From Botryllus schlosseri (lineage: Eukaryota): DNA of 64,000 bases. This document shows, piece by piece, positions 14,484 through 19,566 of the stretch. The translations under genes were made by a program, and so were the position numbers. Positions within the stretch are counted from its first letter, which is position 1; every line of letters starts with the position of its first letter. The notes under the pieces are model-generated. The model ran no database searches. It was not told where the DNA came from and saw only the letters and a list, made by a program, of their open reading frames with translations. The stretch lies in contig CM119371.1 in assembly GCA_051294905.1 (NCBI GenBank), positions 12,276,001 to 12,340,000 of the forward strand. The letters are read 5' to 3'.

Positions 14484-14872
14484 CTGTAACATTTGTATTC
14501 GATTTCAATTTCACACTCTGTATTCTAGTAATTAACAAGATAGTAATACTTACTTGTATTTTTTTCTTGAAATCTTGAGTTCTTTTCACCTAGTAAACAA
14601 AGAAACAACCTTCCTCAAATTATGTTCACCAACCTGAGGTAGTAAAAACAGAGAACTTACCGATGCAATAAGTTCGGTGATTGGACTTGATTCTTTCTCT
14701 TTATCTGTTTCGATGAAGCAAGAAAACATCACGTTAACACAAACTTTAGTTTATTTAATTAGATCAGTGTATACTTACACGTGTATTGTAATATATCCAC
14801 GAGCGCAGATTTCACATCTTCTCGCTGCGACGTCCAGGTGGAAAAGACCGATTTGACTGCGTCGAGGTTAAT
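14484..14872 (-). other. Putative spliced leader exons of pPolB (three ~70-nt GT-AG introns)
   Basis: GTAAGT donors lie at 14778, 14660 and 14553, and YAG acceptors end at 14705, 14590 and 14484. The intervening exons (94, 44 and 36 nt) join into one open frame with the pPolB ORF. Confidence 0.6.
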
Positions 14873-15082
14873 CTAGTGCGAGCACCATCTAGTGCTCACG
14901 ATTTTCAGATTGTTTGTAAGCCTATTATCTGTAATTTCATACACAGCACATGAACATTCACATTCACACAATAAATACATTACACTGAATCACAAATATA
15001 TTTCAAGGTGGTTCTAATTGTTAAGAGCTGGTTCAGGAATTGGTCGGTTGCATCGTTCAGTTGTTTTTAAATCTGATCAAGA

Positions 15083-15886
15083 TCACTTGCGTTCAATAGC
15101 CGAAGCCAATAGCTTTTTTATTTCAAGAATGATTTTGTGCAGGGAAGGTTTCTTCTTTTCTGTAAGGGAATCAATGAAACCTAGAATCATGCCTAGGTGT
15201 GGTATGACCACATCAAGAGTCTTGAGATGGTCTCGAATATTGTTGGCGGTGCACAGACATATTTTCTCCTCTTGTCGTCTCCCTCTCGATGTCTTCGCCC
15301 GATCTTCATCTTAGCCGAGTTTCACCTGGTTAAGAACCAAAGTTTTTTGTTTCTATTTAGAGAGACGTATCTTTTTACATGGAGGTGGACTGGTTTGTTG
15401 CGAGGTTGTGGGTACATCTCGCTTTCTAGAACTTGATGGTTTCTCGATTGGGATCTGTGGTTTTGGTAGACCGGAAAATAACCTTCGAGAAGTCGTCGGT
15501 TTTTCAGATGGTACCGTGGATCGAACTCTAGATTTTGGAAAAATCTTACGAGGAGTTGCCGGTTTCTCAACTGGTAACACAGCTGAAGTTGTCGGTTCAT
15601 CTGGAAGGGGTAAGTTCAAAGCCGAGGTTGTCGGGTTGTCAACCGTGACTTGGTTCGAACCACGTGATTCCAACCATGCCTGTAGTGTGATGTCACGGTG
15701 AGGCGGTTGGTTTTCGATAGGTGTCGTGGAATCACACTCAACGACCTCTGTCGTTGAAGTAACGAGGTCTTCGGATAGGAGGGCCTCCAAAATATCCGCA
15801 TCTTCTTCAAATTGCAGTTCAAAAGAATTAGGTTCATACCCGATGGTATTAAATCTGTTCAACTGAGCCTGGGTCATGATTAACAC
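15083..15886 (-). pseudogene. Acidic, Ser/Thr/Pro-rich disordered protein with NLS-like motif, frameshifted
   Basis: The acidic N-terminus reads FELQFEEDADILEALLSEDL, followed by imperfect (E/D)KP(T/A/S)(T/S) repeats and PPPCKKIRL. It continues after a frameshift to ...LASAIERK* at 15083. Confidence 0.5.
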
Positions 15887-15963
15887 AAATTAAAATCGAG
15901 GTATACTGATCGACGGATGATATTCGGTATGAGCGAGTGGGATTTACCAGTTTACTGAGGACC

Positions 15964-15995
15964 TATTTATTCAAAACTACTTCCTCTTTCCCGCC
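15964..15995. promoter_or_regulatory. E2F-type site (TTTCCCGCC, 15987-15995) plus TATA-like TAAATA on the minus strand in the divergent promoter
   Basis: The consensus match is seen directly between the divergent ORFs starting at 15886 (-) and 16133 (+). Confidence 0.4.
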
Positions 15996-16132
15996 ATCAG
16001 TCCCCTTCTTCCTATTTGGTATCGTGTTACTCTGTTCATTATAACAACCTTTTATTCATTCTAATTTCCGATGTATGATCACCTAATTACCGGAATTATT
16101 TTTACAGTTTCTGTTGTCAATAACTACACAAT

Positions 16133-16465
16133 ATGAACTCAACTCATACCCGAGTGATTATAGAAAATTATCTACTTCACCATCACCATTTACCTGTCTC
16201 TGATTTGAGCGAAACAGAACAGTTGGTTCACGATATCGTTGATTTAAACATATCTGATCAAATTGTTGAGAGCATCGAGAAATGTGATTTCACATCACTA
16301 ACCAACACGATTCTGGGATACGGTGTGGACTGGAATGGTGTTATTTGTATTGTTGCGATCACAGCTATGAAAAGTGATGTTCATACTATCTCATTGTACA
16401 CAGATGCATCATCGAAATTCTTGAATACACACTTTATCTCACTGACAAATGATTGGGTATGCTGA
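16133..16465 (+). CDS. Putative divergent Bcl-2-like protein, intact ORF of 110 aa
   Basis: DFTSLTNTILGYGVDWNGVICIVAI resembles BH1 (F..V..ELF.DGVNWGRIV). KFLNTHFISLTNDW resembles the YLNDH...W approach to BH2. This is an alignment by eye only. Confidence 0.5.
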   Translation: MNSTHTRVIIENYLLHHHHLPVSDLSETEQLVHDIVDLNISDQIVESIEKCDFTSLTNTILGYGVDWNGVICIVAITAMKSDVHTISLYTDASSKFLNTHFISLTNDWVC

Positions 16466-16582
16466 ATTTCAGACTACACAATCATAAAACTATCATTATG
16501 ATTCCATTTACTGAATTCCTGCAGGGATTATTTCAAACCCAGTCTGTTCAGGCGATTTATCCAACTTCGAAACCGAGTAACT

Positions 16583-16616
16583 ACGCGTTTATGGTCACGT
16601 GACTAGGTCTATAAAA
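16583..16616 (+). promoter_or_regulatory. Promoter of the OB-fold gene: ACGCGT, palindromic E-box GTCACGTGAC (16594-16603), TATAAAA (16610-16616)
   Basis: The motifs are seen directly, 39-72 bp upstream of the ATG at 16655. Confidence 0.55.
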
Positions 16617-16654
16617 TACGAGTAACCCACGACAATGATCATTATCTGGACATC

Positions 16655-17256
16655 ATGGCAATGGGGAGTATATAAAAATTGACCATTGGGAAATCATCGG
16701 ACCTGCGAATTGCAGTCAAGTTTGTTTCCTCCCCGAAAAAGGGGCTCGTTAGTAGTTACCTGAAAGGTGTATTTATAGACAACGAGGACAATACTATACC
16801 CTTCACTTGTTTCAACCAAGAACTGTTCAAAGCCATCGAAAAAGCTTTTAGGAAACGCAAGCGACTACTCATTAAAACAGCCTGGACTCGACTCGATAAG
16901 TTCACGGGAGAACCTACTTTGCTAATCGGTCGAAGTTCGTCTGTTACTATTCATGGCACATCAAAACACACCCCGGACGAGTACCCCGTGGTAAGCTGTA
17001 ACACTATAGGCAGCGAAAAATATATTTCAATCAACGCGGTATGTATCGATCACGAGGAAAAATCCATCCCTGTCAATGGCGAAGACCTCAAACTACATAG
17101 TTTTACGTTAAGCGACGACACCGGAACTGTCAAACTCGATCAATGGACCTCGCCTGGTTTAAAAAAGGGAAAAAGTATGCACTAACGCGCGTCAAAAACC
17201 ACGAAGGAAGATTAAAGATTGACCAATTAACTCGAATTCTAGAGTTAAAAGAATGA
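16655..17256 (+). pseudogene. Tandem OB-fold ssDNA-binding protein (RPA-like), one nonsense codon and one frameshift
   Basis: It starts MAMGSI*KLTIGKSSDLRIAVKFV. OB1 includes VFIDNEDNTIPFTCFN. OB2 includes FTLSDDTGTVKLDQW, then after a frameshift GKKYALTRVKNHEGRLKIDQLTRILELKE*. Confidence 0.75.
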
Positions 17257-19566
17257 TATGTATGTGTGTCTACTGTTTCACAATACACAATGGTTGATGC
17301 ATATTTTCGTGTCATCTGTGATTCATGATATAGGCCTACTCAACACATTGAGTCAGTTTTGCGCTGAGCGGTTGTATTTGGTTCGTATTGTGTACGCTCA
17401 CGGATTGCTTTTCGACAACCTGTTGTACGGGAAACAATTCGCGATATAACCACTATAGTAATTCAGTGGACAGGATACCATAGTCATTTGTCCCAGCGGA
17501 ATATGTAGGTCACTATACATTAAAAACACCTGTTTTCAAAACCGATCGTGGAAAATCAACCATATGCACGTTATACAATGTAATTACTTCGACGAAATAC
17601 ACAATCGCGTCCATGAAGCACCACAATGACGCTTTTCCGAAGCTCCATAGCCCGATTTTCGACTGCTAGCTAGCTCAAACTGCACCGTTTCTGGTTTCGA
17701 AATACAACATTTGTGACTTCCGGTATTTTACGAATCACCAGCGATCGATTATACTACTGACATATGTGAGGATTGGTGTGAATGAAACCAGTTAACAATG
17801 TTTCTATGTTTACGATTGATTTAAATTATTACGTGGAATAAATATTATTTTTTGTACTCCAACTTTGTAATTGTGTAATAGCAACACATACAGTCGGCAG
17901 CTTGTGTTAGCAACGTAATTCAATGCGTTCAAGCAAACATTTGACTTAATCCGCCAAGTATTTCCTGCTTCTCATTCTCAGAGAAATTATTGCCCACCTC
18001 TAGCTTCGTGGTTCTCAAGTAATTAAAGGTTAACAACGATACTGAACTGGATTTCATTCTCCTGGGCAACGCATTAATTTTCATTTTATCTAAAATATCA
18101 GACATGAGTCGACATTTCAAATTGACGGGGTTTCGAGTTTGAAATGGGACAGATTTCGATCACAAAAAACTCACAATGGCTACGACACTGATAGTAATGA
18201 TGGCTCTGAGCTAGCAATTGCTACACATTCAACAGAACAGCGGTATCACGATTCACGCAAAACGACGTCACATGTGTTCAAGTTAAGTTGTTCGGCGACT
18301 AACCTTTTTTCAATAGTGCAACTAGAACTAGAACTACTGGACTTTTAAAATCTAGATCTAAAACCGGAACTGGAACTATTCACTTTTTAATATCCGCAAC
18401 TGCAACTAGAACTAGAACTTGTCCTACTCACTTTTAAAAATCTGCATCTAGAACTACAACTATCCAATCGTAAAATCTGCAGCTATAACTGCGCAAAACT
18501 CCGTTAGTTATAGTTGACCGTCAACTACTAAAAGGATAGTTTGTACCAGTCTGATTTGAATAGGTTTATCAATTGAACGATAGCCTCAATACTGTTTGGA
18601 GTCAATAATTAGCCCCTTGCTGTCATATCGACATGGTTCCGCTTGGCTACATTCTCCAAATGTCTTATATTTTAGACCTATAATGGGCAGTGTTCGTACA
18701 TGTAATAGGGGCTGTTCGACTGTCTCTTCTAACATGCATGGGTGGCCCCAGCCATCTTCGTCTCAAGTTTTCAGATCAATTAAATGTGAATTAATATGGT
18801 GTTTAATACAATTACAAGCCCCGTTCGCGATTCGATTTCCCTGAGGTTGTCATAAGAAATAAATTTGGGCAATATACATTGAACATTGCTTAGGGAGAGG
18901 CAGGTGAAATTGAGGCAGTGATTTAATAAGTTGTAACTAACAATATTGACAATATATTAGAGTGGAGAAGATTAACATACCACAGGCCTAGATTAACCTC
19001 GTTGCGACAGACTTTCAAATACGGAATGGTTATCTGAAAGACATTCGCTAAAGGACGACGATTTCTCGTTATCAAATGAAGGAAGAAACAATTTATTGAA
19101 ATCAGAGCTGCTGTTGTATATTGAGCTATGTAGCAACGATAAAAATATCTGGCTGCTTTTCCTGTTTGCATTCGTCAAACCATGGTTTGGACTATTGTGC
19201 GATACCAAACGCATGCGGCCCGCAGACGTTTATTTTCCGGCCCGCAACATCTGCGATGTTTACACTAGTCAACACATGTTTTTAGGAAGACAAATTAAGT
19301 ATAGTGATGGAGGCTCTGAAGGGCACTGATTCCGAATATGGCCCTATTTTTTCAAATTGGCTCTTGTTTTGGAGATAACCCATGGGGCTGTTTCGACTAA
19401 AATCTCCCGTTTTCGCTGTAATCGCTAGATAGAAAATCAGCCCAGTCTTACGATAAAGTTTACAAATTCAGTCTACTTGCTATTGTTACACACAGAAAAC
19501 TCTTTCAAATCAAAATACAGCAACAGTACTGTATTCAGGGGTATTCAATTTATCATAGTTATGGAC

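Follow-up and report, generated by a model that had tools for sequence, protein, structure and literature searches.

Accessory genes at the right end of a broken Maverick/Polinton in Botryllus schlosseri: a tandem OB-fold gene and predicted introns ahead of the polymerase gene

Introduction

Does the end of a Maverick/Polinton hold an early region of the adenovirus kind, or genes that support the element's own replication? The question is raised by a stretch of 64,000 nucleotides of Botryllus schlosseri DNA (GenBank assembly GCA_051294905.1, contig CM119371.1, positions 12,276,001 to 12,340,000 of the forward strand), here called the window and numbered from its first letter. Positions 1-17,758 are the right part of a Maverick/Polinton, with core genes on the minus strand. 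Between the gene for its protein-primed family B DNA polymerase (pPolB) and the terminus, the original prediction described a cassette of four linked parts: a spliced leader of pPolB; an acidic open reading frame (ORF) with an LxxLL and a nuclear localization signal (NLS)-like motif; a bidirectional promoter with an E2F site; and, divergently, a Bcl-2-like ORF together with an OB-fold protein that binds single-stranded DNA (SSB) under an E-box/TATAAAA promoter. These parts were read as the cell-cycle and anti-death module of a replication-competent virus, by analogy with adenovirus, in which E1A activates S phase, E1B-19K mimics Bcl-2, and E2 provides the polymerase and the SSB, DBP, which coats the displaced strand.

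The four parts lie where they were described, within the element's right end at 17,758. In our assessment they probably form the accessory region at the right of a broken copy from a multi-copy Maverick/Polinton family, which in working copies would act as a replication-support module through host transcription and splicing, and not through a cell-cycle takeover of the E1A type. The features on which this reading rests are listed here.

9457-14483, minus strand: pPolB, recognized by ordered motifs, in several frames, with a 1.25-kb insertion at 11512-12763
14484-14983, minus strand: predicted introns at 14484-14553, 14590-14660, 14705-14778 and 14929-14983, with exons of 36, 44 and 150 nt, from splice signals
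14990-15325, minus strand: a conserved, helical-looking coding region that had been overlooked, with a strong acceptor at 15326, from frame analysis
15353-15877, minus strand: a 174-amino-acid (aa) ORF, acidic towards its N-terminus and, towards its C-terminus, basic and rich in Pro, Ser and Thr, in the same frame as 15310-15086
15878-16132, no strand: intergenic region between divergent start codons, holding an E2F-type site (15987-15994) and, with its end at 16109, a site that resembles an acceptor
16133-16465, plus strand: a 110-aa ORF (108 aa up to a Trp), possibly a shrunken Bcl-2 relative, with a predicted 68-nt intron at 16457-16524
16594-16616, plus strand: E-box palindrome GTCACGTGAC and TATAAAA, 45 nt ahead of the OB start codon
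16655-17258, plus strand: tandem OB-fold (RPA/LEF-3-like) gene, interrupted at codon 7 by a stop and near 17,175 by a frameshift
17259-17758, no strand: terminal non-coding region ending in ACTACT (AGTAGT in reverse), likely a terminal repeat

Results

The cassette belongs to a multi-copy element whose copy here is dead

Four sequencing runs were aligned to 12,600-18,600 at 80% likeness. In run X1, which may be the source sample, the summed depth, which does not equal copy number, ranged from 247 to 1,851 across all 22 bins of 12,801-17,222, with the cassette and pPolB covered alike, while the exact-match contigs directly outside the terminus had a depth of 9-10. Contigs diverged by about 3-7% and by 12-16% cover the acidic and helical regions (both ends of the upstream gene) as well as the 110-aa ORF and the OB gene, and one 924-nt sibling contig is colinear across 15910-14982. 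The cassette genes are therefore inside the element, and sibling copies carry all of them. Two findings had been named as overturning the original prediction, a cassette of host sequence flanking the element or one missing from related Mavericks, and neither holds within this host: sibling contigs cover the cassette about as deeply as pPolB.

The summed depth of X1 over 17223-17825 is several-fold above that of the element body, with a peak of 5,571 at 17,424-17,624, which fits a shared terminal region. In another run, X10, which carries a second organism label (coded organism B), contigs diverged by about 3-12% lie over the whole cassette, through a related host, a mixed sample or a wrong label.

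The window holds a dead copy, with breaks in pPolB, in the OB gene and in the upstream gene. Of 584 substitutions relative to siblings 40 were listed, and 27 of these fall in six scored ORF pieces, where 22 are non-synonymous, as neutral decay would produce. Because the copy is dead, replication competence, which the original prediction had asserted, is not readable from it.

A tandem OB-fold protein with its own promoter

The gene at 16655-17258 is predicted to encode a protein with two OB folds, and this fold is secure on the strength of homologues, a structural model and fold searches. The homologues came from an HMMER search of 1.84 billion proteins, which returned seven matches at E ≤ 0.001, the best of them 55% identical (E 3.6e-55). 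P0001, at 55% identity, aligns over nearly the full length and matches both broken ends of the window copy; P0004 and P0006 are 29-34% identical. The remaining four of the seven are multi-OB proteins with the Pfam domains Ssb-like_OB and tRNA_anti-codon, and two of their clusters include members named from Methanomassiliicoccales archaea. A word-index protein search with the OB piece gave zero matches. By Atlas features the protein scored 0.95 against OB/RPA-like clusters.

A model built from a four-sequence alignment reached a pLDDT of 71; the folded piece was 169 aa long, and its second barrel is incomplete. Foldseek matched this model to HIN-200 (E 8e-6), Teb1 (9.9e-6), RPA70 (1jmc, 1e-5) and LEF-3 (4.5e-5). 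In VIA, HIN-200 (Z 11.0, root-mean-square deviation (rmsd) 8.4 over 140 aligned residues), Teb1 (Z 10.5, rmsd 2.0, 89 aligned) and RPA70 (1fgu, Z 10.4, rmsd 2.4, 95 aligned) were tied, followed by POT1 (Z 9.9), and in a library of viral folds the baculovirus LEF-3 was the top match. Adenovirus DBP was absent among the listed fold matches, which alone excludes nothing. The protein is of the tandem OB type known from RPA and SSB, and the positive OB match, set against published statements on the adenovirus SSB, separates it from the DBP type. The predicted OB-fold SSB thus holds as regards its fold, but the gene has two breaks in the window copy and its product is not of the adenovirus type. A preference for single-stranded DNA is a prediction. 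Two of the homologues are full-length relatives on contigs of their own: P0001, of 198 aa, on a 3,664-nt ENA contig, and P0004, of 214 aa and 29% identity, on a 12,767-nt Logan contig.

Upstream of the gene, the palindrome GTCACGTGAC (10 bp, at 16594, unique in the window) stands 6 nt before TATAAAA at 16610, with the ATG at 16655. An E-box followed by a TATA box in this way arose in 0.13% of 20,000 shuffles, and this arrangement, as had been proposed, makes a convincing candidate promoter of the OB gene.

Predicted introns ahead of pPolB

Splice signals predict four introns of 55-74 nt ahead of pPolB, and the last acceptor adjoins its ATG at 14483. About 500 nt hold three exact GTAAGT donors, compared with 28 in 128 kb (both strands), which corresponds to a Poisson P of about 2e-4 for a region picked afterwards. 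The listed sibling indels at 14,492 and 14,753 sit in predicted introns. The splice signals of the proposed pPolB leader are thus above chance, but no RNA junction was seen: the raw RNA run left six reads near 15,070-15,087 and four near 16,925, and in run X7, guessed to be RNA but possibly DNA, one contig spans 14659-15024 unspliced.

We also considered that the acidic ORF, the helical ORF, the small exons and pPolB might be joined by splicing into one protein. This was rejected: the phase breaks down in the upstream exon and sibling length variants disagree. Unpaired acceptors are known as joining points of spliced leaders (PMC1488885); a spliced leader added at such acceptors would be a mechanism of the host, unlike a leader of the adenovirus style.

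The acidic ORF, the helical region and the E2F-type site

The N-terminal third of the 174-aa ORF is acidic and the remainder is rich in Pro, Ser and Thr. It lies upstream of PolB, on the pPolB strand (15877-15353), which is the place of the Oncoid genes of adintoviruses. The two motifs on which its interpretation had been built are present as LEALL at 15790 and KKIR at 15376, but such motifs occurred in 8.7% and 11.1% of 5,000 residue shuffles, close to chance. A diverged sibling contig (about 13%) aligns with 15539-15910 and with 14982-15283, and not with 15284-15538, the part that holds the NLS-like motif. None of LxCxE, the CR1 pattern (DEN)(LIMV)xx(LM)(FY) and paired CXXC occurs in the acidic frame; in all six frames of 14400-17760 LxCxE occurs twice, in each case on the strand opposite to a gene, namely the acidic ORF (15390, plus strand) and the OB gene (16964, minus strand). 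On these grounds the proposed analogy with E1A is unsupported. No family match was found for the acidic ORF, and a word-index search with the acidic frame read through its stops as X to 15,086 was also empty.

The helical-looking ORF (15,310-14,990) shares its frame with the acidic ORF, from which two stops separate it, and no homologue of it was found. It may be the acidic protein's C-terminal domain, or else a second cistron that follows the acceptor at 15,326. In the window copy it is broken near 15,313, 15,087, 15,069 and 14,996, and sibling contigs differ from the window copy near the last three of these positions.

The intergenic region separates divergent ATGs at 15877 (minus strand) and 16133 (plus strand). 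Its E2F-type site, TTTCCCGC at 15987, is a good match, found in 1.4% of 20,000 intergenic shuffles (P about 0.014), and the window holds seven E2F-type matches. The divergent start codons and the site of the bidirectional promoter that had been proposed are present, and the site exceeds chance only modestly. The lowest X1 depth inside the element, 247.6, falls in the bin 15816-16016.

A possible relative of Bcl-2

The ORF described as Bcl-2-like is present, and the evidence in its favour lies at its end. Of the 1,740 TGG triplets in the window, one, the Trp codon of this ORF (16,454-16,456), is followed directly by a donor and 68 nt further by an acceptor. The predicted intron is of phase 0 and stands at the BH2-equivalent Trp, so that the exon boundary agrees with that of Bcl-2 by prediction, with no RNA junction and without the GG before the Trp. 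The next exon opens with G-L-F and completes W-x-x-F, which we take to be a BH2 pattern. A further Trp occupies the BH1-equivalent position. From sponges to mice, the BH2 Trp marks the end of the coding exon in genes of the multi-motif Bcl-2 family (PF00452), a boundary regarded as a hallmark (PMC8998228).

The same comparison reveals what the ORF lacks. It has DWNG, at 16328, in place of the NWGR motif of BH1 (PMC8998228), and NDW in place of GGW; only 108 aa precede the predicted intron; and the predicted 26-codon next exon has no hydrophobic tail (best 19-residue hydropathy 0.08), so that a membrane anchor is missing. The searches were equally unsupportive, with no Pfam family at E ≤ 10 (where filters drop weak ones), no Bcl-2 chain among five PDB sequence matches at E ≤ 10, a best Atlas score of 0.75 to an unrelated cluster, and no homologues by word-index protein search or metagenome scan. 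A single-sequence model had a pLDDT of 41 and contained strands, and is too poor for a fold test (best VIA Z 6.0); the lack of a Bcl-2 chain among 50 VIA rows for this model neither supports nor excludes Bcl-2. We regard Bcl-2 ancestry as about evenly balanced, and a working anti-death role as less likely than the ancestry itself, since the loss of NWGR and of the membrane tail makes such a role uncertain. If the ancestry is real, the intact host intron of such a Bcl-2 gene would be a record of capture as DNA, not via mRNA.

Discussion

How a working copy may have used the cassette

In a working copy, host polymerase II would transcribe in both directions from 15,878-16,132, separately from the E-box/TATA promoter of the OB gene. 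The leftward transcript would start near the E2F-type site and cross the acidic and helical ORF or ORFs, and host splicing would then remove the four short introns, possibly with addition of a host spliced leader, to yield the pPolB mRNA. Through the E2F site the element could follow the S phase of its host passively, without forcing it. The tandem OB protein may coat the strand that is displaced in protein-primed, strand-displacement synthesis by pPolB. The weakest step concerns the 108-aa ORF, which might be a Bcl-2 gene that was captured and then shrank, with the BH2 intron retained but the NWGR groove motif and membrane tail gone. We infer all of these functions, and the OB fold and the introns beneath them are themselves predictions.

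Several results weigh against this account. The E2F-type site, besides being only modestly above chance, falls in the bin where coverage of the element is lowest. For the Bcl-2 call, profiles, PDB sequences, Atlas and fold searches all failed to give support. An OB fold cannot separate single-stranded from double-stranded binding, and HIN-200 domains, which bind double-stranded DNA, tie for the first place among the fold matches. No splice joint over the cassette was listed in one raw RNA run, of which about 6% was read, at a depth of 0-3.5 reads. In favour of sharing with Mavericks of other hosts nothing was found: six scans of viral contigs and two of metagenome contigs gave no relative.

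Alternative explanations

The likeliest alternative concerns the 110-aa ORF, which may have nothing to do with Bcl-2, its likeness and the position of its intron being coincidental. We consider this only slightly short of an even chance. It agrees with the empty Pfam search, the five PDB matches without a Bcl-2 chain, the unrelated Atlas cluster and the strands in the model, but this model is not good enough for a test of the fold, and coincidence must also account for a phase-0 donor after a BH2-like Trp with a fitting acceptor, rare among the TGG triplets of the window, and for a next exon whose G-L-F yields W-x-x-F. The small exons ahead of pPolB invite a different doubt, namely that they encode an N-terminal extension of the polymerase. 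Traced back from the pPolB ATG, the phase meets one stop in the 75 whole codons of the three exons, a result equalled by 3.8% of 10,000 shuffles. However, the traced phase has no Met, the next upstream exon has nine stops, and sibling length variants at 14,694, in the 44-nt exon, shift the phase relative to the window copy. A coding role is accordingly quite improbable, and a non-coding leader is likelier. As for the OB protein, it might bind and shield DNA ends in the manner of POT1 and Teb1, or of HIN-200, capping the linear ends or hiding the DNA from sensors, instead of serving replication as an SSB. HIN-200, Teb1 and POT1 do tie with or sit beside RPA70 in VIA, and the gene is the last before the terminus; yet its distant sequence matches are archaeal RPA-type proteins and its best viral fold match is LEF-3, an essential SSB of baculoviruses, and we think end binding unlikely.

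The full scheme of the original prediction would have the acidic protein drive S phase and release E2F, the 110-aa protein block apoptosis, and a free virus be replicated by the SSB together with a polymerase under E2F control. The acidic ORF does sit upstream of PolB, where adintoviruses have their Oncoid genes, and Bcl2 and IAP homologues have been reported from that group (PMC8502044); adenovirids have been argued to descend from polintons (10.1101/2024.03.18.585575); and the E2F-type site and the BH2-type intron fit the scheme. Against it stand the acidic frame without LxCxE, CR1 or CXXC, its LxxLL and NLS-like motifs near chance, the NLS stretch that cannot be aligned in a diverged sibling, and a Bcl-2 candidate without NWGR or a membrane tail. 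We hold this scheme to be very doubtful. A bolder possibility, also unlikely, is that this Maverick lineage is a DNA virus of animals with introns that its host splices, and that an adenovirus-like kit was assembled independently from other parts in its terminal early region: an RPA-type tandem-OB SSB, a captured Bcl-2 with its ancestral BH2 intron, and an unrecognized S-phase regulator that works without LxCxE. Such a kit would be a living model for the origin of adenovirus early regions from polintons, and would contradict the published rule that the SSBs of protein-primed viruses are not of the OB type. Compared with these, an accessory region that supports replication remains our preferred reading.

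Relation to known systems

The element shares with adintoviruses and other animal Mavericks/Polintons its pPolB, rve integrase, ATPase, capsid-like genes and (AGT)2//(ACT)2 end motif (PMC8502044, PMC8097293). It also shares an accessory region that flanks the core, with accessory genes upstream of PolB; Bcl2 homologues are reported from the group, and most copies are degraded there as here. The window's acidic ORF differs from the Oncoid genes in lacking the LxCxE, CR1 and CXXC motifs by which these are defined (PMC8502044). The description of Mavericks as viruses that carry, upstream of PolB, oncogene-like genes, along with Bcl2 and IAP homologues, is already in print (PMC8502044; 10.1101/2024.03.25.586562). 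The general adenovirus-E1 framing is thus published, and as its E1A step failed the motif tests, it adds little.

The likeness to adenovirus is one of function and layout and not of shared genes: a candidate ssDNA-binding protein, a polymerase message predicted to be spliced, a site of the E2F type and what may be a Bcl-2 relative lie near one end of a linear, protein-primed element, and no homology of the cassette to adenovirus early proteins was detected. The differences are considerable. The cassette has no E1A motifs; its SSB is of the OB fold, unlike that of adenovirus; and the element has an integrase, with a terminal protein that, by motif order, is fused to pPolB (for the architecture, see 10.1101/2024.03.18.585575).

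What appears new is the OB-fold gene and the introns. The adenovirus SSB has been cited as having no clear similarity to OB folds, and no more than a remote OB-like first case, from a phage, is claimed in the 2021 preprint that says so (10.1101/2021.03.25.437074); a survey found the SSBs of pPolB viruses to be unrelated to OB-fold proteins (PMC4889955). Set against this survey, an animal Maverick with a canonical protein of the tandem-OB type would stand out as a clear exception and would offer a testable replication factor, and if P0001 and P0004 sit in Mavericks or polinton-like viruses, the gene would also occur outside this host. RPA70 OB-A/B, archaeal RPA, LEF-3, Teb1 and HIN-200 share the tandem OB fold with it by model, fold search and distant sequence likeness. 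Unlike these, the window protein is about 200 aa long, stands alone and belongs to a protein-primed element; it is 11-16% identical to the solved structures, and its DNA preference is predicted only. Vertebrate Mavericks have been reported as intronless (PMC8097293), whereas five or more introns are predicted here; spliceosomal introns would contradict that description. Neither an OB-fold SSB nor spliceosomal introns in Mavericks were found in print, including the main text of 2026 preprints, with supplements and subscription journals partly covered; "SSB" and "RPA" have no occurrence in the searched supplement of PMC8502044, and protection of the displaced strand during protein-primed replication of Mavericks is not addressed in the literature examined.

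Other features of the element and the window

The assignment to Maverick/Polinton rests on the core genes and the terminus. Further core features lie to the left of pPolB:

1-7666, minus strand: core Maverick genes, with the ATPase at 7058-7666, a broken integrase at about 5270-6103, capsid-like ORFs at 257-1476 and a protease-like piece past the window edge

The pPolB motifs run in order from 14483 to about 9457 as DNLC, FDIES, NGGRYD, DCNSMY, HKLSGNVIYG and MCDTGS, under motif names that we assume, including DNLC as the Cys motif of the vOTU type. This succession of exonuclease and polymerase motifs identifies a protein-primed family B polymerase in a broken gene. No match that would name it as a polymerase was obtained in Pfam, PHROG, NCBIfam or PDB sequences, nor any match to a hidden Markov model, and a pPolB piece gave zero tblastn matches to phages. 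Among 30 ORF pieces, Pfam recognized rve (E 2.7e-14), Chromo (2.2e-9) and Pox_A32 (7.5e-5, at the cut-off), so that both the rve integrase and the packaging ATPase of a Maverick are present. For the double jelly-roll major capsid protein there is Capsid_N alone, a weak match (E 0.039) on 637-1476, and the piece at the window edge is presumably a protease by its motif. The element ends with ACTACT at 17753-17758, in agreement with (AGT)2//(ACT)2 termini as far as one end can tell; the left end lies outside the window. The (ACT)2 end motif is given for vertebrate Mavericks (PMC8097293).

Other elements have inserted into the Maverick. Two opposite-facing copies of a 1.25-1.3-kb element, 90-96% alike and with CAGAGGTGG ends, lie at 2942-4243 and 11512-12763; the second splits pPolB and is flanked by the 8-bp duplication ACCATTTT. 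We assume that this element is hAT-like. A fold-back element of about 630 nt, with 191-nt arms that are 96% complementary, is inserted at 8314-8947 between pPolB and the ATPase.

Beyond the Maverick, a fragment of the DNA-binding domain of a Hermes (hAT) transposase lies at 33529-33891 on the minus strand (E 2.9e-10). Long decayed inverted repeats, 74-89% complementary and about 23-25 kb apart, are found at 38593-40031 and 62709-64000, and the structure that they delimit may be a large element with terminal inverted repeats or a set of nested elements. Between the repeats lie a Transposase_21-like ORF at 42730-44964 (E 9.6e-5) and a NACHT ORF at 57276-58424 (E 8e-8).

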